In this document: piece by piece, positions 2,250 through 15,240 of the stretch | Layout of the letters: the number at the start of each line of letters is the position of its first letter | Position numbering within the stretch: the first letter of the stretch is position 1 | Assembly (NCBI GenBank): GCA_001821935.1 | Contig: MHOU01000003.1 | Coordinates: forward strand, 11,873-75,872 | Length of the DNA: 64,000 bases | Direction of reading: 5' to 3' | Source of the DNA: Candidatus Staskawiczbacteria bacterium RIFCSPHIGHO2_02_FULL_43_16 | Lineage (GTDB): Bacteria; Patescibacteriota; Minisyncoccia; Minisyncoccales; Staskawiczbacteraceae | Position numbers and translations under genes: made by a program | Notes under the pieces: model-generated | Seen by the model: the letters and a program-made list of their open reading frames with translations, nothing else | What the model was told of the DNA's origin: nothing | Database searches by the model: none

Positions 2250-2591
2250 ATGTCAACACGTATTGAAAAAGTGAATTCACTCCTGCAACACGAAATCAGC
2301 AAGATTTTGGCTGCGGATTTTGGGTTTAGCGGGGCTTTGGTGACGCTGACCCACGTTGATACTTCGCCCAATTTAATCCAAACTAAAGCCTATATTTCTG
2401 TCATGCCCGAAGAAAAAACCGACCATGTTATTGGGGTGCTCAACAGAGGCGTCTATGATGTGCAAAAAAAAATTAACAAGATGGTCAACATGCGCCCGGT
2501 GCCTAAAATTATGTTCGTGCGCGACAAAGAAGTTGCGGAAGCTTCACGAGTGGAAGAATTGTTAGAAAAAATTAAGGAAATTGAAAAGTAG
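2250..2591 (+). CDS. rbfA: Ribosome-binding factor A
   Basis: 113 aa. N-terminal RIEKVNSLLQHEISKIL… matches the RbfA pattern. Position after infB is the conserved operon order. Confidence 0.85.
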   Translation: MSTRIEKVNSLLQHEISKILAADFGFSGALVTLTHVDTSPNLIQTKAYISVMPEEKTDHVIGVLNRGVYDVQKKINKMVNMRPVPKIMFVRDKEVAEASRVEELLEKIKEIEK

Positions 2592-2618
2592 CGAAAAGGT
2601 GATAATATAATACCCATT

Positions 2619-2690
2619 GGCCTAGTAGCAAAGTAGTAATGCAAGGGACTGCAAATCCCTTATACGTGGGTGCGATTCCCGCCTAGGCCT
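2619..2690 (+). tRNA. tRNA-Cys (GCA)
   Basis: Cloverleaf read by hand. Acceptor GGCCTAG/CTAGGCC. Anticodon stem AGGGA/TCCCT with loop CTGCAAA (anticodon GCA). T-arm contains GTTCGATTC-like loop (GCGATTC). Confidence 0.75.
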
Positions 2691-4485
2691 CAAGTTGTAA
2701 TTTTTGCCCGGGTGGCGGAAAGGCATACGCGCGACACTTAAAATGTCGTGAGTTTCGACTCATGTGGGTTCGAGTCCCACCCCGGGCACAAGGAGCAACA
2801 AAACGAGTTTCAAAACGGCTTTCAAGCGATTGGAAGCCGTTTTTAGCTTTAAAATCAAGTGTTTTGCCGGATAAATTGAGTTCGGAAAATACAATCTTGG
2901 CTAATTCCTCTTTTTCTTGCGGACTGGCTAAATGGTAGGTGGGAAGGGCTTCTTTTAGCAGTTCGGAAAGTTTTATCACTTCTTGGATAGTTTCTATCAT
3001 AGAAGCCCCGGAAGCCTGTTGTACATTATTTAATGCGTTCAAGCTAAGGTTCAAAGTTGCTTCTTCAGAGGCTAGTTTTTCCGGGCTATATGCACGAGAT
3101 TTAAGAAGCGACAATCTATTGGCGTCCATATAGGCTAAGTCTTCAAGGATTTTCTTTTTCTTGCGCTCAGCTTCTTCCAGGTGATTGGTGCGTTTTTTAT
3201 CCAATTCAACGGCATCAGTATTCGCTAGTTTATCCAAACCAGCAAGCTCGTCTTCTGTAAGCAAGAGTTTGCCCATGATTTCTGTAGTTTCTTTAGTAAG
3301 AAAATTCAAATTGAAGTTCTTATTGGGGTTAGTGCAACCCGGAGCACAGCGTGAACCAAAGTAGATAATCCCCTTTTTCACATAAGGAGTGTACAAGCGA
3401 CTACAGTCCGTACAACGTACTATTCCCCGAAATGGGTAATCAATTACTTTAATGTAGTGAGCACTCTTGTTGCTCTTTTTCAGTTGTGCTTGAACCCTAG
3501 CAAAGAGTTCAGGCTTAGCTAATCCTTCATGGCTGGTGCTCTTGATATACTGCCCATCATTACCTCGTATCATGCCCATATAGAACGGATTTATTAGGAT
3601 TTTATGAATACTGTTATAGGTGGGAATACGGGCTATTTGCTCAATTTTTGCCGGATCATCATCCCCATCATCCGCCAGCATTTCTTCTTTTGTTCGGTGC
3701 CGACGAGCAGGCACCATAGTGAATCCTTGCTCAATCGCCCATCTGGAAAGGTCCATCAAGCTCCATTCTCCGGTCGCATACATTTCAAAGAGCTTGGCTA
3801 TAATCGGCGCACGCTGGGGGTCTTTTGGCTTGTGGAGCATATTTCCCTCATTCAGATAGCCAACCGGCGCCTTATTAATACACAAGCCCGCCGCACGGCT
3901 TTTATGAATGGTTAGCATTACTTTTTCCCTAGTAACGCGGGAATGATGGATTGAAAATGTGCCTTCTATGTCCATCTGTAACTCGCCCGAACTTGTTTTA
4001 TCATAAGTAGCCAGCGCAAATTGTACATCAATTCCAGCTCTCATTAATTTTCGGAGTATGGTTTCGTCGCCCTTGTTTCTGCATGCTCTATCATAGCAAA
4101 GGAATATCACTCCTTTAAAATAGCGCTTGTTAAGCCATTCGGCCAACTTATAGAACTTGGGACGCTCAACGCGGTACTGGACGCTATTATTCGCCCCAAA
4201 CACCATGTCAAAGTCTTCCTTAAAGGCAGAGTGTTTTTCGGAAATAACTCCGTCCTTGATAAAGTTGTCCAGAGAAATGGGGGCAATCGGAATCTTTTTT
4301 ACGAAAGCGAACCTGGTATTTTCTGCCAGTTGGTATTTTATAGAATTTTTCTGATTATCTGAGTCGTCCGTGCTTTTACGGTTATAGATGAGGTAATAAT
4401 CACGGTATTTGCCAGCAATGATGTCTTTTTCTATTTGTGTAATTTCCATATGTTTATTTATGGTTAATATTATTTTACAAAACAC
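2683..4485 (-). CDS. Large serine recombinase (resolvase/invertase-family integrase); its 3' end runs antisense through tRNA-Leu and tRNA-Cys
   Basis: N-terminal resolvase domain with the catalytic Ser context (YNRKSTDDSDNQ…SIKYQ) and the DRxxR-like motif (FLCYDRACRN). Recombinase domain follows. Zinc-ribbon (CTDCSRLYTPY…CAPGC) and coiled-coil tail as in large serine recombinases. The last ~35 codons are the reverse complement of the two tRNAs. Confidence 0.85.
   Translation of the reverse strand: MFCKIILTINKHMEITQIEKDIIAGKYRDYYLIYNRKSTDDSDNQKNSIKYQLAENTRFAFVKKIPIAPISLDNFIKDGVISEKHSAFKEDFDMVFGANNSVQYRVERPKFYKLAEWLNKRYFKGVIFLCYDRACRNKGDETILRKLMRAGIDVQFALATYDKTSSGELQMDIEGTFSIHHSRVTREKVMLTIHKSRAAGLCINKAPVGYLNEGNMLHKPKDPQRAPIIAKLFEMYATGEWSLMDLSRWAIEQGFTMVPARRHRTKEEMLADDGDDDPAKIEQIARIPTYNSIHKILINPFYMGMIRGNDGQYIKSTSHEGLAKPELFARVQAQLKKSNKSAHYIKVIDYPFRGIVRCTDCSRLYTPYVKKGIIYFGSRCAPGCTNPNKNFNLNFLTKETTEIMGKLLLTEDELAGLDKLANTDAVELDKKRTNHLEEAERKKKKILEDLAYMDANRLSLLKSRAYSPEKLASEEATLNLSLNALNNVQQASGASMIETIQEVIKLSELLKEALPTYHLASPQEKEELAKIVFSELNLSGKTLDFKAKNGFQSLESRFETRFVAPCARGGTRTHMSRNSRHFKCRAYAFPPPGQKLQLEA
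2706..2788 (+). tRNA. tRNA-Leu (TAA), long variable arm
   Basis: Acceptor GCCCGGG/CCCGGGC. Anticodon stem CGACA/TGTCG with loop CTTAAAA (TAA). Long variable arm tgagtttcgactcat. T-arm GTGGGTTCGAGTCCCAC. Confidence 0.8.
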
Positions 4486-4775
4486 ACATCTTCTTCACTA
4501 ATTTCGACTTCGCAGAATGGGATTGGCGCACATTTGAAAATATTCCACATCTTGCCGCCAGAATATACATAAAGGTATTCCTCAGCAACTAGACGTTTGC
4601 GGATACGCCTTAATACACCGCCAAAAGCAGTGATATTTTTAGTGGCTTCATCATCAAATCCATTTTTAACGCTGATAGCACTATTTTCTATATTTTCATT
4701 CATAAGATTGGGAAATTTAGTATTATTATTACTAATATTACTAAAGTCCCTCACCGCCAATCGGTTAGCGAACAT
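4470..4775 (-). CDS. Hypothetical protein (start chosen at internal Met MFANR…; the ORF track gives 4470..4859)
   Basis: ORF on the element side of the recombinase. Using the longer start it overlaps the upstream ORF by 95 nt. No family recognised. Confidence 0.3.
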   Translation of the reverse strand: MFANRLAVRDFSNISNNNTKFPNLMNENIENSAISVKNGFDDEATKNITAFGGVLRRIRKRLVAEEYLYVYSGGKMWNIFKCAPIPFCEVEISEEDVCFVK

Positions 4776-5145
4776 CGGCTTTGGGAATAACCGGATACTG
4801 TAAGGTCTTGGAGCAACCACTGCTTCCAAAATGTGGGCAGCCGAAGAAAATTCCGGCATCTGCCCTCCTAGTTCGCATAAGCATCTTAACCTTATGGTCT
4901 GGGCATTCTGGGAAAGCCATAACCTCTTTGGGGTTTACTTGTCCACCCATGCTCTTTTCAACGACTTCAATCTGTTCTTTTATCTCTCGGTATAGTTTAA
5001 CGGCACCTTCAACACTTTCTTCATAAAGATTGACCATTATTGATGACCTGATAATTGTGCCATCACTTGCCCGATCTACGGAGTAGTTAACGTGGACTCT
5101 ATTATTTGGATCAAACATATTTTTATTTGATGTATTAAAAAACAC
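4765..5145 (-). CDS. Hypothetical protein with a degenerate topoisomerase-type zinc-ribbon-like C-terminus
   Basis: C-terminal CPDH…FFGCPHFGSSGC resembles the CPxCG…FxGCSxYPxC zinc-ribbon pattern. Otherwise unassigned. Confidence 0.4.
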   Translation of the reverse strand: MFFNTSNKNMFDPNNRVHVNYSVDRASDGTIIRSSIMVNLYEESVEGAVKLYREIKEQIEVVEKSMGGQVNPKEVMAFPECPDHKVKMLMRTRRADAGIFFGCPHFGSSGCSKTLQYPVIPKADVR

Positions 5146-5186
5146 TCCGGACTAGGGAGTGTTGATGATTATTAATCATTTAACGT

Positions 5187-5387
5187 CTATTTTGAACCGC
5201 CAGCCGGTTCACCTTGAACCGGCAGACGAGTAATAGTAATAACTCCTTGGCCGTATTTGACTTCGAACTTACTGCCAATAGAGAAATCTGCCTTGAGCAA
5301 AAAACTATTGGTAATCCTTAGCATAGGTTTGCTGTTATCATCCCCGGGAGCACGTGTGATGGTCATAACTCTTTTTATGTTATTCAT
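5187..5387 (-). CDS. AbrB/MazE/SpoVT-family (swapped-hairpin) DNA-binding protein
   Basis: 66 aa. MLRITNSFLLKADFSIGSKFEVKYGQGVITITRL fits the looped-hinge beta-barrel pattern of AbrB/MazE antitoxins and regulators. Confidence 0.5.
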   Translation of the reverse strand: MNNIKRVMTITRAPGDDNSKPMLRITNSFLLKADFSIGSKFEVKYGQGVITITRLPVQGEPAGGSK

Positions 5388-5608
5388 AATAATGTGAATG
5401 CTTGTGCCAGGCTGGTTCGACTAGCCAGCCAAAGAATATCAGTGGCGTTTTATTTAAAAATATTCCACTTATAAAAGTTGGTAGACCATGGTTGTGCTGA
5501 TGAATGAGTATTGGGCGATAGACATTGGGGGGTCGTTTAGCTAACTTCAAGGCGTGACTTGAGCCTCAGACTGAGAGGAACCGAGAGACGGTTATTTCAC
5601 CACAGGGA

Positions 5609-6076
5609 ATGGGACCCCTTTTGAAACGATCCCCGGTTCAGTCTGAAAATTTTGCGCATTTTTTTTCAAAACGAGGAAAACAGTGGGCTTGTTGTATGAT
5701 TTATGATATGGCATGGAAACCAGATATAGGGCATTTAAAAAGTAAAGAACTGCTAAATCGGCGGAGGTTTTATCGGTTACTTAGCGAACAAAGCAATTTC
5801 GTTGACCATGACTTGGCTCTGATTTTTTATACCGGCTTGCTGGTATTGGTGCATGAGGAACTGCGTCAAAATAAGTTTTGCAGATTACCGGGATTGGGGG
5901 ATTTTGTATCGATGGAACAGAAAAGACGGCCGGCGTGGTGCGGGAAAGCACATTTAGTAATTGAGCCAAGACAAATCATAAAATTTTACCCAGCTGAGCG
6001 CTTAAGACGATACTTTGGCAAGCGTCAAGGGTTTCCGCGCTATAGCGAGGTGATGCCGCCAAAACCAATCCAATAG
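5609..6076 (+). CDS. Divergent HU/IHF-like DNA-binding protein (start uncertain, possibly near 5712 at MAWKPD)
   Basis: C-terminal half CRLPGLGDFVSMEQKRRPAWCGKAHLVIEPRQIIKFYPAERLRR matches the HU/IHF arm pattern (GFGxF…RxGRNPxTGxxIxIxAxxVxxFxxGxxLK). It is divergently transcribed from the AbrB-like gene. Confidence 0.45.
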   Translation: MGPLLKRSPVQSENFAHFFSKRGKQWACCMIYDMAWKPDIGHLKSKELLNRRRFYRLLSEQSNFVDHDLALIFYTGLLVLVHEELRQNKFCRLPGLGDFVSMEQKRRPAWCGKAHLVIEPRQIIKFYPAERLRRYFGKRQGFPRYSEVMPPKPIQ

Positions 6077-6224
6077 CCCCTGTATATCGGAGATTTGAAG
6101 CCATCCTGCGTGCAGGGGAGTTGTGGATATTATCTAGGTATAGCTCAGTAAAAATGGCAATTTGACACAGCTTTGCTCGATTATTCAAAAGCATCCTCTG
6201 GTAGAACAAGCTTAAAAGTACACA

Positions 6225-6261
6225 AAAAGCCCCTATTTCCAGACTAAATATGGGCTTTTTG
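6225..6261 (+). terminator. Terminator-like hairpin after the HU-like gene
   Basis: AAAAGCCCC-ctatttccagactaaatat-GGGCTTTTT: stem plus 3' T-run. Confidence 0.4.
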
Positions 6262-6375
6262 CTTAAATCAAGAATAAAAAGGGACTGAGCTATGATTACA
6301 AATAAGGTATTGCTGAATAAAAAGCAATACGGTCGATAATGATCAAATCATTAACAATAAGTAGTAATAAAATCT

Positions 6376-6558
6376 ATGGATACAAAAGATATAAATGAAT
6401 TATTTATTTTTAGGCGTTCATGCGAAAAGTGTGATCATCAATGGTTTCCTCGTGCAAGTAGTCCCCAAAGGTGTCCACGATGCCAAACCTGGCTCGATAA
6501 GCCTAGTAGCAAGGGAGCGCCGAAAGTAAACGAAGTGCCTGCTGGTAAATTCCAGTAG
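6376..6558 (+). CDS. Small zinc-ribbon protein (CxxC…CxxC)
   Basis: 60 aa with CEKCDHQW…CPRCQTW. It lies just upstream of the replicase gene. Confidence 0.4.
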   Translation: MDTKDINELFIFRRSCEKCDHQWFPRASSPQRCPRCQTWLDKPSSKGAPKVNEVPAGKFQ

Positions 6559-6619
6559 CACTGTAAACAAAACCCCACGCTAGAAACGTGGGGCAATACT
6601 AATTAAATTAATCAATCAA

Positions 6620-9154
6620 ATGTATATAAATTATAGCACAATTCTGTGCGAAGAGATAGAGTTGAGTGAGTGGGTAAATATCAAAATAATTAACCCTTTT
6701 CTTGGCTTTAAAGAAACCTATGGACTTTCCGAGCCAAGCGATGAATACTGGGTAAATTGGCGTCTTGAGATGCGAAATGCCAAAAAAACAAAAGTGCCCT
6801 ATATGCCAAATGGGAAACTAGCAAGCACTACTGATCCGGTGACTTGGAGTACCTTTGACGAAGTAATAGCCGCACAAAGCCGTTTTAGCGGCATTGGTAT
6901 CGTGTTCACAGGTCTATTACTGGGAATAGATGTGGACAAATGCCTTGAAGGCAGGGATATAACGCACGAACAAAGGAAAAAGATAGCAGAACTTATCACA
7001 AGGGCAAATACTTATACAGAAGTATCACCATCTGGAACTGGTTTGCATCTTTTTCTCAAACTTACTGCTCCGCTTAATCTTAAGGCAAATCGCCATGGTA
7101 ATTTTGAGGCTTATACTTTAGGAAGGTACTTCACTGTGACGCAAAACTTCTACCAAGATATAAAGTCTGTTAGGCTAGTGACACCAGAGGAAGCTGAATC
7201 TTTGCTTTCAATCATTGGTTATCCTTGGGAAAAAGGCGAACAGCCCAAAAATACACTCCATAGCCCAACAAGCAAAGAGATTGAATTAAGCGACGATGTG
7301 GTTCTTCAAAAAATGTTTGCTTCTAAGAATGGTTCAGCTATCAAGTTGTTATACAACGGAGATACTTCAGAATTTGATGGAGATGAATCAGTGGCTGATG
7401 CTTCTCTCTGTTCACACCTTGCTTTTTGGGTCGGCAAGGATGCTTCTCGCATAGAATCTTTGTGGCTTGCTTCTCCGCTTGGCAACAGAGAAAAGACACA
7501 ACAGCGCAAGGATTACCGAGACCACACCGTCGAATTTGCTATACAACACTGTACAGGAGTATACGATAATTCGGTTTCTATGGAAAAAATAGAGGGAATG
7601 CTAGAGCAAATACCTGTTGACATGTCAAAATTGAAATTAATGGAGGTGTTGAGTCCCATTTTTCAGGCTCTTATCCATATTGAAAGGACAACTGCAGAAT
7701 TGTTCATTCTGAACAATATTAAAGAACACTTCAGTATCACCAAGGCGGACGCCCAGAAGTATATTCCCCATTTGAATAACCTAAGGTTAAAATCACTGGC
7801 GGCAGACAAAGAGGAGAGGGAAAAGGAAGAAAAACTACCACTGCTGGCTAGGGACATAGACTACGGAGAGGTATTTGATGCTATATCTGAAATAGGTATT
7901 ATCCATGAAAGTACGCTAAAAATAATCACAGCGGTCATTATCTCTTCCCAATTACGATGCAATCCTCCTTTGTGGTTATTTCTCATTGGAGTACCATCGT
8001 CGTTAAAAACCGAGCTTGTTGGTTTATTTAGCGCGACAGATGAAGTCTATACATTGGATACGCTTACAGAGAATGCGTTTGCTTCTGGGTTTGTGCCAAA
8101 AGACGGTAAAGAACCACAGGATTTACTGCCACTCATTGATAACAAGGCATTTATCATAAAGGATCTGAACACTCTCTTTTCATTGAACGAGGAAACGGTA
8201 AAAAAGATCCTTGGCGATCTGACAAGCATCTTTGACGGTAAATTCGAAAAGTTCACAGCCACAAGGGGACTGATTAGCTATAGCTCGTTGTTTTCAATGA
8301 TCGGATGCATCACGCCTTCAATTTTGATTAAACACTATAACTATGCGACACAGCTTGGCCCACGATTTTTGTTCCTGCGACTTCCGGAATTAGACAGTGA
8401 TGAAATGAACCAAAGTTTAGAGAACTTTTGGAATGAGAAAAACAGGAAAGAAAAAATCATAAAAACACGGCAAATAGTGTCCTCCTATTGCACTCAACTC
8501 ATCAAAAAAATCAAACAATACGAACCTGCTGATGAAACTAAGGAAATCCAGGATAAAATTAGTGATATTTCTCTGCTTATTTGCCGGGCTCGTGGCATTG
8601 CTATTACGCAAAAATCAAGTTTTACAGACGAAAAAACAGGGAAAAAGGTGGAATATTATGAAATAAATAACTTTCAGGTAGAGCAGCCCTGGAGAATAAT
8701 CAATCAGCTAAAGTCCTTACTTCAAATCTTGAGTTTTATCAACGGAAACGCTGGTGTGGGCGAAGATGAAATAAATGTTATCAGGCCTGTCATCCTATCA
8801 ACTATGCCGGTAGATAGGTCAGAAGTAATGGGTATTCTTGTGAAAACATGCGGACGTTCGGCAACTGAAATTGGCAAACAAGTCGGAAAATCAGGGAAAA
8901 CCGCGCGTAGAACCCTAAAAGAGTTAGAAGCACTTGGGCTTGTTGACTGGTATCAAGACCCAAGCAATACATCAGGAAAAGCCGCCAAATTATACTTTGT
9001 CTCTGATAAATTTGCTTCTATCCTTCAGGCACCCATGCCCTCCCCGGAGTGTCTGTCCCTTTCAAAGATTGTGGCTGACGTGAATACGGCGATTTTTGAC
9101 GAAGCAGAGTACGAAATAGAAGATACTAACCCCCAACTTCCTGTGAATGGTTAA
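6620..9154 (+). CDS. Prim-pol (archaeo-eukaryotic primase-fold) domain protein, with a primase C-terminal-like region, a degenerate P-loop segment and a C-terminal winged-helix; putative replicase of the element
   Basis: AEP motifs hhhDVD (GIDVDKC) and sxSGxGxH (VSPSGTGLHLFLK). A PriCT-like block follows (DASLCSHLAFWVGKDASRIESLWLASPLGNREKTQQRKDY). Then a GxxxxxKT-like segment (GVPSSLKTE). C-terminal HTH-like region GRSATEIGKQVGKSGKTARRTLKELEALGLV. Confidence 0.7.
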   Translation: MYINYSTILCEEIELSEWVNIKIINPFLGFKETYGLSEPSDEYWVNWRLEMRNAKKTKVPYMPNGKLASTTDPVTWSTFDEVIAAQSRFSGIGIVFTGLLLGIDVDKCLEGRDITHEQRKKIAELITRANTYTEVSPSGTGLHLFLKLTAPLNLKANRHGNFEAYTLGRYFTVTQNFYQDIKSVRLVTPEEAESLLSIIGYPWEKGEQPKNTLHSPTSKEIELSDDVVLQKMFASKNGSAIKLLYNGDTSEFDGDESVADASLCSHLAFWVGKDASRIESLWLASPLGNREKTQQRKDYRDHTVEFAIQHCTGVYDNSVSMEKIEGMLEQIPVDMSKLKLMEVLSPIFQALIHIERTTAELFILNNIKEHFSITKADAQKYIPHLNNLRLKSLAADKEEREKEEKLPLLARDIDYGEVFDAISEIGIIHESTLKIITAVIISSQLRCNPPLWLFLIGVPSSLKTELVGLFSATDEVYTLDTLTENAFASGFVPKDGKEPQDLLPLIDNKAFIIKDLNTLFSLNEETVKKILGDLTSIFDGKFEKFTATRGLISYSSLFSMIGCITPSILIKHYNYATQLGPRFLFLRLPELDSDEMNQSLENFWNEKNRKEKIIKTRQIVSSYCTQLIKKIKQYEPADETKEIQDKISDISLLICRARGIAITQKSSFTDEKTGKKVEYYEINNFQVEQPWRIINQLKSLLQILSFINGNAGVGEDEINVIRPVILSTMPVDRSEVMGILVKTCGRSATEIGKQVGKSGKTARRTLKELEALGLVDWYQDPSNTSGKAAKLYFVSDKFASILQAPMPSPECLSLSKIVADVNTAIFDEAEYEIEDTNPQLPVNG

Positions 9155-9178
9155 GAGCTTCATTGCTTAATATCTACC

Positions 9179-9210
9179 AAAAAAGCCACAATACTATCGT
9201 GGCTTTTTTG
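9179..9210. terminator. Bidirectional rho-independent terminator
   Basis: aaaaAAGCCACaatactatcGTGGCTTtttttgg lies between the convergent replicase (+) and the acidic protein gene (-). Confidence 0.6.
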
Positions 9211-9404
9211 GATGAGAATTATTTTCTAACTTTTACAATTAAATCCGTAACCATTTTATCTGTTTTCCTAACAAAAAAATTTATTTCTTTCAGTAGTTTT
9301 AATTTTTCTTTGGGAGAAACGCTGGCTTTATTTAATTTTTCCAATGCCTCTTTAATTGCTTTTTTTGTTAATGTTTTTGCCATAGTTTTTTATTTATTGT
9401 TAGT

Positions 9405-10037
9405 TTATTCTGTCTTATCTTTATACTTTTCATCAAGGTCATTTTTTAGCTTTTTTATTTGATTTTCAGTATCATCTTCTGATGGTAATGCCTCCTCTAC
9501 TTCCTCAACTGGTTGAGCCTCCACGACTTCGCCATCTTCTACTGGCACAGCCTCTTGCGCTTCATTATCTCTTTCAGCTCTTGCCATTTCTTGTTGTTGC
9601 GCCTTTCTTCCCCATCCTAAATAAGCCACGGCTTTGGCAATTCCCCAAAATACTACTCCGCCTAACACCGTGGTAGCCACTTCTTTAATATCTTTGTCGC
9701 CCGATGCCAATTCGCGAATACTTTCACCCACGGTTCCAGCCATAGCAATTCCCGCCAACATATTAACCATAGAATTGGCAGATACATAGTCCTTAATTTC
9801 TTTAATACCTGCCATTAGAACATTCTTTGCTTTTTCGGACAAACTTTCATCGCTTTGCAATTCTTCTAATTCGTCCAAATGCTCATTAAGCTCGCCGACA
9901 CCCTCTCGAAGTTCCGCTTGGACTTCCCTTATCTCCTCCTCTATGCGAGTTTCTTCTGCTTGTTCAATTCCTGCTTCCGCCACTTGTTCTTGTGGAGATT
10001 CTAATTCTTCGCGATTTAAGCCGTCTGGATTTTTCAT
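9405..10037 (-). CDS. Hypothetical acidic coiled-coil protein with a central hydrophobic segment
   Basis: 210 aa, strongly E/D-rich. Central MVNMLAGIAMAGTV…VVFWGIAKAVAYLGW looks like a TM or amphipathic segment. No family recognised. Confidence 0.5.
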   Translation of the reverse strand: MKNPDGLNREELESPQEQVAEAGIEQAEETRIEEEIREVQAELREGVGELNEHLDELEELQSDESLSEKAKNVLMAGIKEIKDYVSANSMVNMLAGIAMAGTVGESIRELASGDKDIKEVATTVLGGVVFWGIAKAVAYLGWGRKAQQQEMARAERDNEAQEAVPVEDGEVVEAQPVEEVEEALPSEDDTENQIKKLKNDLDEKYKDKTE

Positions 10038-10151
10038 ATCTTGATTTTAATTAATGGTATATTTTTTCTTTAAGTAATCATACATTTTAAAAAAGAAAAG
10101 AAAAAGACCTCGAGGGAGCAAAGGTGCTCTTTCGAGGTCATGTTTAGTGGG

Positions 10152-10805
10152 TTATTTCCCCCACTTTTTGTAGTGCTTGTCTTTGACGGCCTGTTCAACG
10201 AACGGCCACATAGCCAGTCCGCCTTGCACGAAACAGCAGAGGATAAGGTGAAGACGCAACTTCACCCCAAGCCACGCTTGGCCACTCATCGGGTACTCCT
10301 TCCGAGAGTCATTAAGTAACATCTCGCCACCCGCCTGAGCGATCTCATTGCGGACCTCGTCCTGAACGCCACGGCGCTCTTCTTCCAGCCATTTTGCCGG
10401 ATCGAAATCCTTGGGCGCCTTGAAGACGGTGATGCTGTAGGTGATGTGACTGGAAACAAAGTCCATCAGCCAGGAGAAGAAGCCGTATCCTCCGTAAGAA
10501 GGGTCATGAATCGTCTTTTCCACGATGCATCCCATGTTCTGGATGCCGAGACGGTTGAGCGTGTCGTTGAGGGTTCTGTCCCACAACGCACTCGTTTCTC
10601 CGAGCAAGACCCCCTGCCTGTCGAAGACATAGAAATCTCCCTGCGCCTTCACGGTGGCCAGATTCACTCTCGACACCTTGACTTCGCAGGTTTTCCTCTC
10701 TTTGACAATCCTTGTCAAAAAGGGAAACTCTTGGAAGAACGCGGCGATCTTCTCCCTACTCTGATGCTGACACATGACGCACCTCTTTCTGTGGCATCTC
10801 GCCAC
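10152..10805 (-). CDS. Hypothetical protein encoded in a GC-rich segment
   Basis: 217-aa ORF. Local GC is visibly higher than the flanks (for example ccacggcgctcttcttccagccattttgccggatcgaaatccttgggcgcc). No family recognised. Confidence 0.5.
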   Translation of the reverse strand: MARCHRKRCVMCQHQSREKIAAFFQEFPFLTRIVKERKTCEVKVSRVNLATVKAQGDFYVFDRQGVLLGETSALWDRTLNDTLNRLGIQNMGCIVEKTIHDPSYGGYGFFSWLMDFVSSHITYSITVFKAPKDFDPAKWLEEERRGVQDEVRNEIAQAGGEMLLNDSRKEYPMSGQAWLGVKLRLHLILCCFVQGGLAMWPFVEQAVKDKHYKKWGK

Positions 10806-10997
10806 ATTTGGGACTTTAGCATCTCGCCAAAGTCGGATGGATGCCTTTAGCTTCTCGCTAAGAGCAACGTTTCAGAAACTACTTATACCATACACTTTTT
10901 ACAGTTCATTGTCAAATTTTTCGTGTTCTATGCAGTAATTAAAAACCCCAAAAAAGCATCGTGCTTTTTCGGGGTAATGGTAGGCGAAAGTGATCAC

Positions 10998-11702
10998 CTA
11001 CTTTTTGGGGTTGGCTGTTTGTTGAGCCTTTTTGTGTGCTACGACTACTGCCATAGCACCTGGGTAAAAGATCCAAGCGCAGATCCATCCTATGGCCTCG
11101 AATACCTGGAAAACAGGTGACTTTGGCGCTGGCGGAATTTCATCGTCCGCCAGAAGGAATGTCGCCGGGTTCAATTGGTCGAAATTACCCGACTTCATTT
11201 CCATGATGAAACACAAGATGTAGAATACTCCGCCGACGAGTGCAGTCCACATCACCGGACCTCGAAGGTCACCTGTGATAAGGTTCCACACGCACATCAC
11301 GCTGGCCGCGATTCCTACTCCAAAGTAGAATAGGTGCAGGATTCCAGCAAAGCTCACTTTGTCGCGATCGGGAAATCCGTAATCGGGCTTGTGGGCGTTG
11401 CCAAGGCACATCTTCAGGAAGCCCAAGCCACTGACCACGACGATTGGCAGACTCCACCACAAGTTGGTGATGTCTTTGACCGCCAGATGCACAAAGGCGT
11501 TGGTAATCAGCAGAACTCCGATCCCGTCGCCCCAGGTCATTGTCCAGAAGTCTTGGATGTACAGGAACCTCTGCTTGGTCATCGGAATGAATGAGTTGCG
11601 CGACGGCAGATTTCTGTCCACCGCCTGCGCCAGAAGCATCACACCGATGCACGCGACATTGGCGACCATTACCGATGCAAAAATCAGCCAAGAAAATTCC
11701 AC
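10998..11702 (-). CDS. Hypothetical multi-pass membrane protein (GC-rich segment)
   Basis: Six or more hydrophobic helices (LIFASVMVANVACIGVMLLA, WWSLPIVVVSGLGFL, GILHLFYFGVGIAASVMCVW, WTALVGGVFYILCFIM, IGWICAWIFYPGAMAVVVA). Confidence 0.55.
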   Translation of the reverse strand: MEFSWLIFASVMVANVACIGVMLLAQAVDRNLPSRNSFIPMTKQRFLYIQDFWTMTWGDGIGVLLITNAFVHLAVKDITNLWWSLPIVVVSGLGFLKMCLGNAHKPDYGFPDRDKVSFAGILHLFYFGVGIAASVMCVWNLITGDLRGPVMWTALVGGVFYILCFIMEMKSGNFDQLNPATFLLADDEIPPAPKSPVFQVFEAIGWICAWIFYPGAMAVVVAHKKAQQTANPKK

Positions 11703-11803
11703 GATATCCTCCCTTAAAGAACGCCCTTAAACAGATTTAACACCAACAAGGTGAAAAAGAGCTGTTTATTTGTCAAAGTTCACTATACCCTAATTATAGC
11801 ATA

Positions 11804-12658
11804 TTATGGTATAATGTCAATAGTTGAGGGGTGAACGCCCTCTATCCAATTCCTTATGATATTTGCCGTGATTTTGGGTTTTTCTAACGGTAAAAGATGT
11901 CCGCAATTTTTCATAATTTCCAATGTGGAGCCAGATAACTGCTGGCTAAATTCTTGTATTGAATATAGGGGTGCAACTCGGTCTAATTCACCAGCGATTA
12001 TCAAAGATTTTATTTTTATTTTTTTACCAAATGGAATAAGGCTGAATTTATGAAATTCATCAAATAAATCATTGCTCACCTGCGGACTTAATTTTTTAAT
12101 TTCTTCAATATCCCTGATTATTATTTCTGTATGTATTCTTTGGTTGGCTGATTTAAAAATAATCATATCCCCTAATTTTTTACCAAAACCATTAGATATC
12201 ATTATTTTTTGCAAATATTCTGGTAGCATTTCTGTAATTTCAAAGTAGAGCGAAGCAATCCTATCAAGCAATCCCTCAACTTTTAAAACGGGGGCAATAA
12301 GAATAAGTTGCTTAACCTTTTTAGAATAATGATTAGTAAAAATTAAGGCAACTCTTGAACCAAAAGAATGACCAATAATAATCACTTCTTCCACAGACAA
12401 AATTTCCAAAAAATCATTCAACCAATCGCTATAATTTTTTAAATTATGTTTTTTATGCAAGGGTTCTGAAAACCCACAAGCAGGTAAATCGGGTATTATA
12501 AATCTGTAATCACCAAGGTCATTTGCTAAATCAAGCAATCCCCTGTGATTGCCAGGAAAGCCATGCAACAAAACTATGACCTTTTTATGCATATGGTTTT
12601 TCTGCCAATAAAAAAACTTCCTCCCGTTAATCGTAATTACGTTTTTTTTAAATTTCAT
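11804..12658 (-). CDS. Alpha/beta-hydrolase fold protein (start taken at MKFKK; the ORF track extends to 12844)
   Basis: HGFPGNHRGLLDLANDLGD… and the nucleophile-elbow motif IIGHSFGSRVALIF (GxSxG). Typical esterase/lipase/haloperoxidase-family layout. Confidence 0.7.
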   Translation of the reverse strand: MKFKKNVITINGRKFFYWQKNHMHKKVIVLLHGFPGNHRGLLDLANDLGDYRFIIPDLPACGFSEPLHKKHNLKNYSDWLNDFLEILSVEEVIIIGHSFGSRVALIFTNHYSKKVKQLILIAPVLKVEGLLDRIASLYFEITEMLPEYLQKIMISNGFGKKLGDMIIFKSANQRIHTEIIIRDIEEIKKLSPQVSNDLFDEFHKFSLIPFGKKIKIKSLIIAGELDRVAPLYSIQEFSQQLSGSTLEIMKNCGHLLPLEKPKITANIIRNWIEGVHPSTIDIIP

Positions 12659-12662
12659 TTTT

Positions 12663-12798
12663 GTCGCAGTGGATTTGGGAGTACAGAAAAGGCACCTCCC
12701 CTTGCCAATAACACCCTTTCGGATATTATCTCCTATCCTCGCGAATAGGAACCACTGCGACGTGTGGCAGGTAGAAATGCCATCTCTATGTCGCAGTG
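12663..12798. promoter_or_regulatory. Repeated 10-mer GTCGCAGTGG (two direct copies and one inverted copy) upstream of the hydrolase gene
   Basis: GTCGCAGTGG at 12663-12672 and 12789-12798; CCACTGCGAC at 12755-12764. The 12755/12789 pair forms a 10-bp stem with a ~24-nt loop. Possible operator or leader structure. Confidence 0.3.
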
Positions 12799-13059
12799 GT
12801 CTTTGCCATGCTCCGTAAAAATTTACAGAGTTTAGGCAATTCAATTATTAAATTGTTATCTTAATACTAACTCAAAATCATTAAAAAATAAAGAGGTTTG
12901 TATCATTAAAAAGCCCCACGGGATTGGGGACTTTTCACGATATTACTCCCGGATAGTAAGACTAGATAGTGCATTGATGCTATTTCTGATATTATGGATT
13001 TGAGGCAATAGTTCGGAAAGCCAACCTTCTTCGGCACTATTTTGTAGTAAAAAGGTCGG

Positions 13060-13563
13060 TTGAAGTTTAATAGCAAAAAAGAGATGAAATTACTTATTAG
13101 ATTAATTCCCTTGTGGATTATCCTTATTGCCACCTTGGTGCTGACATTTTGGTCAGTGCGGCAATTGGCCGTATCCGTTATAAAAACCACCACAGCCCCT
13201 GAAGCCGCTTCGGTTAAAATGGACCCGTACGCCGGAGGAATGGGCATGGGCCCAGGATATAGCAATTATTGTTTGACACCGCCCATGTACCCTGCGCTAT
13301 CTTCCGCCATGATGCCCGGAACGGTTATGACCAAAGAAGACAAGGCTGCCATGGAAAAGTACGAGAAAGAAATGCAAAAGTATAATGAAGAATACACTGC
13401 CGCTTGCAAGGCAGAACAGCAAAAGCAGGAAAAACTGAAAGAACGAGGGTTGAATTCAGCCTGGTTTTCAAGCGTAGCGGTGTATTCCATTCTTTTCTTA
13501 TTCGGAATATTCGCAACGGCTCTTACGTTATTGGTGATAAAAAAGAGTGAAACAGAGGGATAG
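13060..13563 (+). CDS. Hypothetical membrane protein (N- and C-terminal TM helices, Met/Pro/Gly-rich and coiled-coil middle)
   Basis: LIRLIPLWIILIATLVLTFWSV and AWFSSVAVYSILFLFGIFATALTLLVI. A strong terminator follows. Confidence 0.5.
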   Translation: MKFNSKKEMKLLIRLIPLWIILIATLVLTFWSVRQLAVSVIKTTTAPEAASVKMDPYAGGMGMGPGYSNYCLTPPMYPALSSAMMPGTVMTKEDKAAMEKYEKEMQKYNEEYTAACKAEQQKQEKLKERGLNSAWFSSVAVYSILFLFGIFATALTLLVIKKSETEG

Positions 13564-14305: not shown

Positions 14306-14379
14306 TGGAGCGGGTATGGGGAGTCGAACCCCACTCATTAGCTTGGAAAGCTAAGGTAATACCGATATACGATACCCGC
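14306..14379 (-). tRNA. tRNA-Gly (TCC), CCA encoded
   Basis: Minus-strand cloverleaf. Acceptor GCGGGTA/TACCCGC. Anticodon stem TTAGC/GCTAA with loop TTTCCAA. T-arm GGGGTTCGACTCCCC. 3' CCA present (TGG on the plus strand at 14306-14308). Confidence 0.75.
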
Positions 14380-14446
14380 CTGCGCCCGCCATATCGGGCT
14401 TCGGCGGGCAATGCCCACTAAGACCGCAAAGGAAGGGGCTCTTTTG

Positions 14447-14517
14447 TCGGGGTACTCGGATTCGAACCGAGATTAAGTCGTCCCAAACGACTCGTGCTGC
14501 CGTTACACTATACCCCG
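14447..14517 (-). tRNA. tRNA-Pro (TGG)
   Basis: Acceptor CGGGGTA/TACCCCG. Anticodon stem AGTCG/CGACT with loop TTTGGGA. T-arm TCGGTTCGAATCCGA. No CCA encoded. Confidence 0.75.
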
Positions 14518-14964
14518 TTTTGCTATCTTAGGTAATTTTTGAAACCGCTGATCGTGATGCCAAACCTGCCCATAATGTATTATTCTGTGACAATTAGCAC
14601 AGACAACAACACATTTTCCAATTTCTTTTTTCACTCTTTCTATCCCAAAATGATTATAGCGCGCAGATCCAATTGAGAACTCCTTATCATTGCCAGTGTG
14701 GTGAAAATCTAGGATTCGATGATCCTTTGTGCCACATTTTATGCACCCACTTTTTATCTTATACCCATCCAATATTTTTTGGTATTTTTCTACAAGCGCC
14801 TTCTTAGTTTTACCATAACAAAACCGACATTTTAAGCGACGGTAGATTTTATCGGGCGTTGAAAGGGCAACCCCAAAATCAGATTCAGGATAATATTGAC
14901 TGCAATATTTGCATAGCTTCATTAGTCTATCATAATATCTTTGGGAGCGGGAATCAAGGTGCAA
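14503..14964 (-). CDS. HNH endonuclease
   Basis: Cys-rich with C-terminal HNH motif (…VVVCANCHRIIHYG…) and zinc-ribbon CxxC pairs. The 3' end overlaps the tRNA-Pro 5' end by ~15 nt. Confidence 0.65.
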   Translation of the reverse strand: MHLDSRSQRYYDRLMKLCKYCSQYYPESDFGVALSTPDKIYRRLKCRFCYGKTKKALVEKYQKILDGYKIKSGCIKCGTKDHRILDFHHTGNDKEFSIGSARYNHFGIERVKKEIGKCVVVCANCHRIIHYGQVWHHDQRFQKLPKIAKRGIV

Positions 14965-15071
14965 ATTACCAAAAACTTAAAAGTAGAATCTGCTTAGGAT
15001 TATATCTCAAAAAATCTTCCTTGTCAAAGGCAAAAAATCATGATAACATCCAAAATAACCCCAGGGGATAT

Positions 15072-15143
15072 GCCCTCGTAGTTCAATGGACAGAACAGCG
15101 CTCTTCTAAGGCGCATATGTGGGTTCGATTCCTACCGAGGGCA
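15072..15143 (+). tRNA. tRNA-Arg (TCT)
   Basis: Acceptor GCCCTCG/CGAGGGC. D-stem GTTC/GAAC. Anticodon stem GCGCT/GGCGC with loop CTTCTAA. T-arm GTGGGTTCGATTCCTAC. Confidence 0.8.
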
Positions 15144-15160
15144 CATGGTTTAAAAATCAT

Positions 15161-15234
15161 GGCGGTCGTAGTGTAGTGGCCTAGCACAGCGCTCTGTGGC
15201 AGCGCTAGCGGGAGTTCGAATCTCCTCGATCGCC
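15161..15234 (+). tRNA. tRNA-His (GTG) with encoded G-1
   Basis: Extra 5' G then acceptor GCGGTCG/CGATCGC. Anticodon stem GCGCT/AGCGC with loop CTGTGGC (GTG). T-arm GGGAGTTCGAATCTCC. Discriminator C. Confidence 0.8.
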
Positions 15235-15240
15235 CATACC

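Follow-up and report, generated by a model that had tools for sequence, protein, structure and literature searches.

An integrative element of Candidatus Staskawiczbacteria that probably carries attP inside its own large serine recombinase gene and crosses over at the 3' terminus of tRNA-Leu

Serine integration systems use cores of 5-8 bp and integrate within open reading frames (ORFs) (PMC8092301), and the Islander paper of 2015 gives only tyrosine-family integrases as known to target tRNA genes (PMC4383910). Elements with primase-polymerase (prim-pol) genes carry tyrosine or serine integrases and many lie in tRNA genes, the enzyme type not being matched to the site (Kazlauskas 2018, PMC5862659); searches of an open-access library yielded no report of a serine integrase that targets tRNA genes or whose gene spans its own attachment site, attP. 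The stretch of DNA considered here, referred to as the window, comprises 64,000 nt (positions 11,873-75,872 of the forward strand of contig MHOU01000003.1, assembly GCA_001821935.1) from Candidatus Staskawiczbacteria bacterium RIFCSPHIGHO2_02_FULL_43_16, and it contains a gene for a large serine recombinase (LSR) whose frame runs antisense through tRNA-Leu and into tRNA-Cys. The best explanation, with a probability of about 0.88, is that a 10.2-kb element with its own LSR carries attP inside the gene for that enzyme, and that crossover in GTGCC at the end of tRNA-Leu split the gene. Integration at the tRNA-Leu 3' end, with an attachment site overlapping the 3' end of the integrase gene, had been proposed in an earlier, sequence-only reading, and junctions, core and empty site agree with it; its remark that such targeting is unusual for serine recombinases accords with the Islander account.

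The LSRs of A118/LI, phiC31, Bxb1 and TP901-1 share with this enzyme the resolvase catalytic domain, the recombinase domain and the zinc ribbon with coiled-coil, as well as the full-length fold, what appears to be a similarly short core, an attP that is an imperfect inverted repeat and a bacterial-side motif lying 5 bp closer to the centre. The clade to which the enzyme belongs differs from known LSRs in its target, which is a tRNA 3' terminus instead of a protein-coding gene or intergenic site, and in the position of attP in its own coding sequence, with the result that the gene is broken on integration and loses a conserved helix at its end. Solved serine integrases are only 13-18% identical to it in fold alignments, and its catalytic domain has an insertion of about 60 residues. 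Islands of the type catalogued by Islander likewise adjoin a functional tRNA gene, with the integrase gene beside the tRNA, but they are the work of tyrosine integrases, and the 3' part that is displaced from the tRNA is made good by a fragment of some tens of bases carried by the island. Here the crossover falls in the final bases of the tRNA gene, there is no duplicated tRNA fragment, and a serine enzyme acts as recombinase.

Self-remodelling on integration has parallels elsewhere. SSV-type integrases are tyrosine recombinases of archaeal viruses in which integration into a tRNA gene, over a long stretch of tRNA identity, partitions the integrase gene into fragments and does not merely swap a short tail. 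As in the present clade, the integrase gene of these systems (fuselloviruses and pRN-like plasmids) spans attP (PMC4383910). The Mx8 integrase (IntP to IntX) also has attP within its coding sequence and acquires a new 3' end of the gene on integration, a change that is reported to alter integrase specificity (PMC6070905, citing Tojo 1996 and Magrini 1999); it differs in being a tyrosine recombinase with another mechanism and longer identity requirements. The likeness to Mx8 and SSV is thus one of strategy, not of family. In the integration-dependent immunity of mycobacteriophages attP again lies in a gene of the element and integration remodels the C-terminus of a protein, but the protein is the repressor, the integrase is of the tyrosine type, and loss of a degradation tag is a demonstrated effect (PMC8092301).

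The run-through frame itself is as the sequence-only reading had described it, the ORF listing bearing out its coordinates, with the stop at 2683, and ARAGORN the tRNA genes that it crosses. The minus-strand ORF (2683..4485) encodes 600 aa from a GTG, or 588 aa from the ATG at 4449, and the shorter product equals database protein P0001 except at two residues. Its last 33 codons (2784-2686, RGGTRTH...QLEA) and stop are the reverse complement of tRNA-Leu, a 14-nt spacer and 9 nt of tRNA-Cys, the TAG at 2685-2683 lying within the last 9 nt of tRNA-Cys. In relatives such antisense read-through extends from a few codons up to several tens, and because its length varies the lack of a stop across the antisense tRNA is unremarkable in itself. 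A frameshift, a chimeric assembly or tRNA genes borne by the element could each have produced the run-through as an artefact, but this has almost no probability: the same sequence is found in 23 contigs from differing samples and assemblers, the tRNA-Cys/tRNA-Leu pair is equally placed in element-free relatives, and the same architecture recurs in 92 independent loci. No frameshift artefact was detected, and none of the homologues keeps a read-through tail beyond the sequence dictated by its tRNA.

Where the family protein ends is a different matter. The sequence-only reading placed the typical C-terminus, '...SRFETRF', at the tRNA-Leu 3' end, and it is correct that homology among relatives stops at the Cys-Ala codons over the tRNA 3' terminus, the tails beyond differing with the tRNA that was hit; the family C-terminus, however, does not end there, since intact homologues continue for about 30 residues past '...SRFETRF' with a conserved helix, 'GWLSEL...I..SI..L'. 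When all six frames of the window were searched for the protein motif WLSE, a single match was convincing; it lies at 13023 on the minus strand, in a fragment that has no start codon ("...AEEGWLSELLPQIHNIRNSINALSSLTIRE"). This orphan frame, "EEGWLSELLPQIHNIRNSINALSSLTIRE" at 13032-12943, matches the conserved C-terminal tail of the intact homologues and locates the distal junction; the displaced helix is encoded at 13023-12946 on the minus strand, 10.2 kb from the integrase. Joined to the 29 orphan codons, the 555 codons that end ...RFVAPCA give a 584-aa protein of the intact type; at its end it reads "RFVAPCAEEGWLSEL...", which lines up at every residue with the ends of intact homologues, for example "RFVSPCDPTGWLSEL...".

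Read on the integrase strand, the left junction (attL) is ...TTGTTGCTCCTT-GTGCC-CGGGGTGGGACTCGAACCC... and the right junction (attR) is ...CTACAAAATA-GTGCC-GAAGAAGGTTGGCTTTCCGAAC..., the sole bases common to both being GTGCC (plus strand GGCAC, 2785-2789 and 13033-13037); a core shared with the distal junction, as had been anticipated, is therefore present. Since G2706 pairs with C2787 in the acceptor stem, the discriminator is A2788, and C2789 is position 74. Because only these five bases are shared, crossover must, on the sequence, lie within the GGCAC core, that is, inside the end of the acceptor stem, the discriminator and C74. In the integrase gene the core falls at the Cys-Ala codons, 31 codons ahead of the native stop. 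A duplicated tRNA 3' end was considered as attR and rejected: the 23-nt tRNA-Leu 3' end occurs once in the 64-kb window with up to 3 mismatches allowed, and there is no duplicated or displaced tRNA fragment. Coordinates of all features are collected in Table 1.

The sequence of events proposed from these junctions is as follows. The element's own LSR would have inserted a 10.2-kb plasmid-like element into the Candidatus Staskawiczbacteria chromosome, with attP within the final ~35 codons of the enzyme's gene and recombination in the 5-bp GTGCC at the Cys-Ala codons. Positions 70-74 of tRNA-Leu(UAA) offer the same 5 bp and, because the core is the extreme 3' terminus of the tRNA, the tRNA would stay intact and only its 3' trailer would change. 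Integration would split the integrase gene, leaving 555 codons by the tRNA with 33 host-encoded codons added, and carrying the last 29 codons, for a conserved amphipathic helix starting WLSEL, to a position 10.2 kb off. Excision would rebuild the 584-aa gene, restoring ...CCTTGTGCCGAAGAAGGTTGG....

Table 1. Features of the window at and around the element; positions are those of the window
Feature	Position	Strand	Basis
Promoter-like site before the tRNA-Cys/tRNA-Leu pair, TTGAAA-16-TAATAT with extended TG	2581..2608	+	Consensus match only
Host tRNA-Cys(GCA)	2619-2691	+	ARAGORN; same place in insertion-free relatives
Predicted read-through tail that host DNA adds to the integrated integrase, 33 codons and stop, RGGTRTHMSRNSRHFKCRAYAFPPPGQKLQLEA*	2683..2784	-	Translation; no conservation beyond tRNA identity
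Host tRNA-Leu(UAA), kept intact by the insertion; putative attachment-site B arm	2706-2789	+	ARAGORN; empty-site alignment with L169, L171, L172
attL common core GGCAC, tRNA positions 70-74 (acceptor-stem 70-72, discriminator A73, C74)	2785..2789	.	Sole shared bases
Element-encoded LSR part, 555 codons, Met to ...RFVAPCA	2785..4449	-	PF00239 and PF07508; PHROG integrase; 824 homologues; fold match
Putative P arm of attP in the integrase's last codons, containing GTTTTGAAAC (2816-2807), inverted counterpart of the P' motif	2790..2816	-	Direct reading; family consensus
Element body, 10,248 bp counting one core copy	2790..13032	.	Pfam; PHROGs; block missing in L169-L172
Orphan integrase C-terminal tail, EEGWLSELLPQIHNIRNSINALSSLTIRE*	12943..13032	-	Six-frame motif search; tail match in 54/120 best homologues; helix in intact model
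Putative P' arm motif TGGCTTTCCGAAC, codons W-L-S-E-L	13011..13023	-	Frozen synonymous sites; GAAC position
attR common core GGCAC	13033..13037	.	Junction reading and empty-site alignment
Host right flank, putative B' arm TATTTTGTAGTAAAAAGGTCGG..., and host gene 13060-13563	13038..13563	+	Relatives have it directly after tRNA-Leu
Reconstructed attP junction CTCCTTGTGCCGAAGAAGGTTGGCTTTCC			Reconstruction
Reconstructed attB junction CCCACCCCGGGCACTATTTTGTAG			Reconstruction

The empty site that had been called for in relatives was reached through the right-flank protein (P0121), which NCBI assigns to Candidatus Staskawiczbacteria; the host is a member of the Patescibacteria, and its IF-2 is short (525 aa). 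An exact look-up of this protein for an empty site returned nothing on record, but homologues at 68-73% identity led to contigs L169-L172, where the order is infB, rbfA, tRNA-Cys, tRNA-Leu(UAA) and the right-flank homologue, and where rbfA is followed by that gene after ~245 nt, free of the element. After ...GGGCAC the relatives read (AC)TATTTTTATAGTAAAAGGTCGATT... and the window, to the right of 13037, reads TATTTTGTAGTAAAAAGGTCGGTT..., and the flanks are homologous. Since these contigs have the tRNA pair and the flank gene and lack the element, the tRNA pair belongs, by this alignment, to the host, and the 10.2-kb block has been inserted precisely where tRNA-Leu ends. A motif, AAAGGTCG (window 13052-13059, some 15-22 nt past tRNA-Leu), is kept in L169, L171 and L172 despite a diverged spacer; its role could be that of the half-site on the host side (B') or of a signal for tRNA processing or termination.

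It is clear that the enzyme is an LSR. Pfam finds PF00239 (Resolvase, E 2.2e-7) and PF07508 (Recombinase, E 2.3e-10, residues 223-337); R24, S26, D120, R121 and R124 show no variation among 30 homologues, nor do the zinc-ribbon cysteines C346, C349, C368 and C372. Structure models have long helices at 399-507 with beta strands on either side, which fits a zinc ribbon with an inserted coiled-coil. A sequence search of solved structures retrieved only the region of the A118 integrase that covers the recombinase and zinc domains (RD-ZD; 4kis, 6dnw), and a fold search with the AlphaFold model of an intact homologue (mean pLDDT 79) retrieved full-length serine integrases with E values down to 2.8e-16, with full-length alignments to 9y66_A, 9dxh_A, 9rah_A and 9iu2_A and matches that include phiC31, Bxb1 and A118; the N-terminal domain matches the folds of TP901-1 and phiC31. 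By every sequence and structural criterion applied, the clade belongs to the large serine recombinases.

The cargo between the junctions includes an 844-aa prim-pol or NrS-1-polymerase-like replicase with a winged-helix domain (6620-9154, plus strand), an alpha/beta-hydrolase (11804-12844, minus strand), a weak HU-like protein, small ORFs and several unknown ORFs (Pfam and PHROGs). Neither search found virion genes among the ORFs of the element, and the viral contig collection holds no relatives of it, so that such elements are not recognised as viruses; on its gene content it looks like a small integrative plasmid-like element. It could be argued that some other enzyme, a tyrosine integrase for example, inserted the element and that the serine recombinase is a passenger, tRNA 3' ends being the classic targets of tyrosine integrases (PMC4383910). 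This is most improbable. No ORF of the element has a tyrosine recombinase domain detectable with Pfam or PHROGs, there is no displaced tRNA fragment and the core is just 5 bp; across loci the sole conserved gene is the serine recombinase, the junction always lies in its 3' codons, and the offset between attP and attB motifs, described below, fits a serine-integrase model.

The same arrangement is widespread among relatives. A protein search returned 824 homologues, the best of them 50-62% identical, and 160 loci were analysed, 80 from species-representative genomes and 80 from metagenomes, with hosts that are mostly Patescibacteria. Antisense fusion of the recombinase ORF to the 3' end of a tRNA gene is seen in 92 of these 160 loci, a number that, with the 824 homologues, contradicts the view that tRNA targeting is confined to tyrosine enzymes. 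The tRNAs hit are those for Glu (72), Ala (11) and Leu (6), with one each for Val, Ser and Arg. Among the best 120 homologues, 54 end in "...(C)DPTG-WLSEL......I..SI..L..." and most of the others in "...CDPTG-NRTPI...", which is the back-translated antisense of the tRNA T-arm. GTG, the complement of C72-A73-C74, stands at the tRNA terminus in nearly all of the fused loci and is 92-96% conserved over 76 tails. In some 20 of the genome loci the same strand bears an orphan WLSEL tail at a distance of 4.7-11.6 kb upstream; the cores, in register, are 5-15 nt long and every one contains GTG, as in GTGACCCCAC of the tRNA-Glu elements. With tblastn of all element proteins against the 160 loci the integrase alone is shared, prim-pol being found in four. 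It appears that tRNA-end targeting with splitting of the element's own gene is a widespread habit that has gone undescribed for serine integrases.

One member of the family appears to have been recovered unintegrated. The metagenome contig L126 (11,834 bp) has an intact WLSEL-tailed gene and, because its ends overlap by 127 bp, is probably circular; it is the only whole-contig circle in the metagenome set, and the genome set has none. Its attP, ...CGCTTTCTTGCTATTTGTGACCCCA-TTGCGTGGCTTTCAGAACTT..., consists exactly of the left half of attL and the right half of attR at the integrated locus L058. All four site types, attP, attB, attL and attR, are thus represented in the family, as read from sequence.

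How the enzyme might recognise a tRNA end can be approached through the arms of the sites, position +1 being the first G of GTG. Among 75 P' arms, 60 have the start of GAAC at +24, as part of TGG CTT TCN GAA C; among 80 B arms, on the tRNA side, 71 have it at +19, and there it corresponds to the universal T-loop read antisense. In the tRNA-Leu of the window the T-loop antisense, TCGAAC, lies 17-22 nt from the core. Rutherford et al. described an LSR zinc-domain motif that lies 5 bp nearer the centre in attB than it does in attP (PMC3783163), and the offset between the P' and B GAAC is exactly 5 bp, as that rule has it, in the one arm pair tested. The DNA of the W-L-S-E-L codons is therefore a probable zinc-domain binding motif of attP. 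On the other side attP lies in the ...RF... codons of the integrase, and the opposite strand there, CGGTTTTCAAA, matches TGGCTTTCAGA at 8 of 11 positions and at a similar distance, so that attP can be described as an imperfect inverted repeat. The acceptor and T arm of the tRNA would then make up one half-site of attB, with the T-loop acting as the zinc-domain motif and its attP counterpart 5 bp further out. In this scheme the zinc domain would read the T-loop and the recombinase domain the acceptor stem, which would also account for the differing tRNA targets of subclades; a concrete, if inferred, explanation of tRNA targeting is thereby offered, in which the acceptor stem confers isotype specificity.

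A 12-nt tandem duplication in the window (2800-2811, minus strand, CGTTTTGAAACT/CGTTTTG...) adds ETRF to the integrase, giving SRF-ETRF-VAPC where relatives have SRF-VASC, and it holds the P-arm motif at the distance typical of the family.

The codons displaced by integration bear signs of constraint on both DNA and protein. Over 76 distinct tails, synonymous choice is frozen at Cys (TGT, 39/39), Asp (GAC, 46/46), Leu+1 (CTT, 65/67) and Glu+3 (GAA, 73/73), a DNA-level constraint such as would be expected of a protein-binding site. At +11 (Ile), +14 (Ser), +15 (Ile) and +18 (Leu) of the tail the residues are conserved and their codons vary freely, serine being encoded by both AGY and TCN, and because amino acids are kept while synonymous codons vary, this pattern points to selection at the protein level. 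The model of the intact form ends in three segments: a short helix (545-551, ...ALESRF), a linker of low confidence (552-558), for which the att core codes, and a terminal helix of 25 residues (559-583, pLDDT 79-88). In the AlphaFold model of the integrated form of the window, residues 547-588 have pLDDT 25-39.

One plausible explanation of the overlap, and one with an even chance of being right, is that it serves compactness only, the helix being dispensable, its conservation mostly that of a DNA site, and the integrated enzyme equally active. The frozen W-L-S-E codons make a DNA constraint real, the integrated ORFs are full length in 92 loci, and the read-through tails vary in length and sequence without any sign of selection. 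Beyond WLSE, however, there are the helix-like conserved residues with free codons and the confidently predicted helix, the tail is kept across phyla and also in loci where the gene is unsplit, and the analogous swap in Mx8 is the one reported to change specificity. The contrary proposal, that replacement of the C-terminal helix alters activity or directionality when the element is integrated, has a smaller chance and is put forward tentatively; altered activity is documented for Mx8, and for this clade it is hinted at by the contrast between the confident helix of the intact model and the low-confidence tail of the integrated one. The enzyme would then have a covalent switch, between a free 584-aa form with the helix and an integrated form without it, bearing a disordered tRNA-encoded tail, the two differing in directionality or activity. 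Such forms could lock the element in or license its excision, and control of directionality would reside in gene structure, instead of or besides a separate factor. That a clade spanning phyla both reads the tRNA acceptor and T-arm as an attB half-site and uses integration as such a switch is, as a combined claim, unlikely.

A further alternative, doubtful though with some evidence behind it, is that the element is a fixed, dead remnant, no longer excisable, the fossil of one event. An exact look-up of RbfA retrieved 23 metagenome contigs from several samples and assemblers, at 99.6-100% identity, and all 23, with identical rbfA, carry the insertion; the attB junction is absent from the metagenome collection and the viral collection has no relatives. 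On the other hand, the 555-codon part, the 29-codon tail and both cores are intact and free of stops and frameshifts, a close family member occurs as a free circle (L126), and elements with differing cargo stand at more than 90 tRNA ends, which implies ongoing mobility of the family. In L083, from the same population, two short stretches near the integrase 5' end differ from the window (L083:2167-2705 against window 4302-4833); its integrase is called at 603 aa rather than 588 aa and its prim-pol is apparently interrupted (called at 257 aa).

Several results weigh against the reading preferred here, in which the element's own LSR integrated through an attP inside its gene, or against parts of it. 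The reconstructed attB has zero matches in the metagenome collection, and for this very element neither an excised circle nor an empty site turned up, 23 of 23 population contigs being occupied, so that it can be called no more than potentially mobile at present. Pfam and PHROGs suggest no candidate for a directionality factor among its small ORFs. The half-site in the host flank (B') is only weakly symmetric with the tRNA side, and while a core of 5 bp here and 5-15 bp in relatives is consistent with serine systems, sequence places the crossover no more precisely than within GTGCC. Conservation of W-L-S-E is partly at the level of DNA, which weakens the case for protein selection on the whole tail. 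Finally, 37 loci have an intact WLSEL-tailed gene and no adjacent tRNA, some of them on long chromosomal contigs; either not every chromosomal member is split, or these are arrays or composite elements.

Intact WLSEL-tailed genes on long chromosomal contigs, with no tRNA within 10 kb, are seen in L079:6791-19164, L072:8406-15462, L019, L029, L016 and L046, whose hosts are Kordiimonas aestuarii, Mucilaginibacter frigoritolerans and metagenome-assembled genomes of Bacteroidota and Verrucomicrobia. Genes for ArdC and for TrwB/TraG-like and HerA-like proteins flank them, and some of the 37 tRNA-free loci, on long contigs of Bacteroidota and Alphaproteobacteria, lie among conjugation-like genes such as those for ArdC and coupling-protein-like products. 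Tandem arrays were considered as the source of the chromosomal intact genes and are unsupported at the range covered, a second integrase being absent within 10 kb. The tandem-array model, with chimeric intact genes at internal junctions, is hinted at by loci with multiple orphan tails, L039, L059 and L098. Upstream of one tRNA-fused integrase L059:3373-6200 has four and L039:1-2300 three orphan WLSEL tails, spaced 0.6-1.2 kb apart and each preceded by GTGACCC, and at L098:3201 an extra orphan tail lies 1 kb downstream of an intact gene; such serial tails look like the residue of repeated integrations at one tRNA followed by deletion.

As small integrative elements these loci constitute a common class in the Patescibacteria, whose mobile elements are poorly known. 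Their enzymes are naturally occurring serine integrases whose target sites no genome lacks, a point of interest for genome engineering because serine integrases need no host factors. Because integration removes the extreme C-terminus of the LSR, the family is also a natural experiment on the function of that region. Software for finding islands that seeks a displaced tRNA fragment or a tyrosine integrase is expected to miss such elements, since neither is present here.

A number of smaller features were noted in the course of the analysis. A third class of tail (...CEPI-LPRVEHY, ...EPIAPRMEHLGKYG...) is found at L054:10001-11785 and L061:5561-7213 and in proteins P0042 and P0047, diverging just past the core codons; at L054 and L061 a tRNA-Glu lies 6-9 kb downstream and is not adjacent, and the class may reflect integration beside another element or a different target. 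In L004 the orphan tail (10680-10760) is preceded by 64 nt identical to the attL integrase 3' end (2478-2700), a repeat between the junctions that far exceeds the usual core and that may be the remnant of a second copy. Within the window, transcription from the promoter-like site ahead of the tRNA pair would run head-on towards the 3' end of the integrase gene. An inverted repeat with perfect arms of 8 bp, AACGGCTT ... AAGCCGTT, with a loop of ~12 nt and a T-rich run after it on the plus strand, lies at 2812-2845 within the codons KNGFQSLESRF, and could terminate transcripts that leave the tRNA pair and enter the integrase gene antisense. Nine tRNA genes are present in the window, among them Gly/Pro and Arg/His pairs at 14306-15235, and tRNA-Leu and tRNA-Cys apart, no tRNA adjoins a recombinase.

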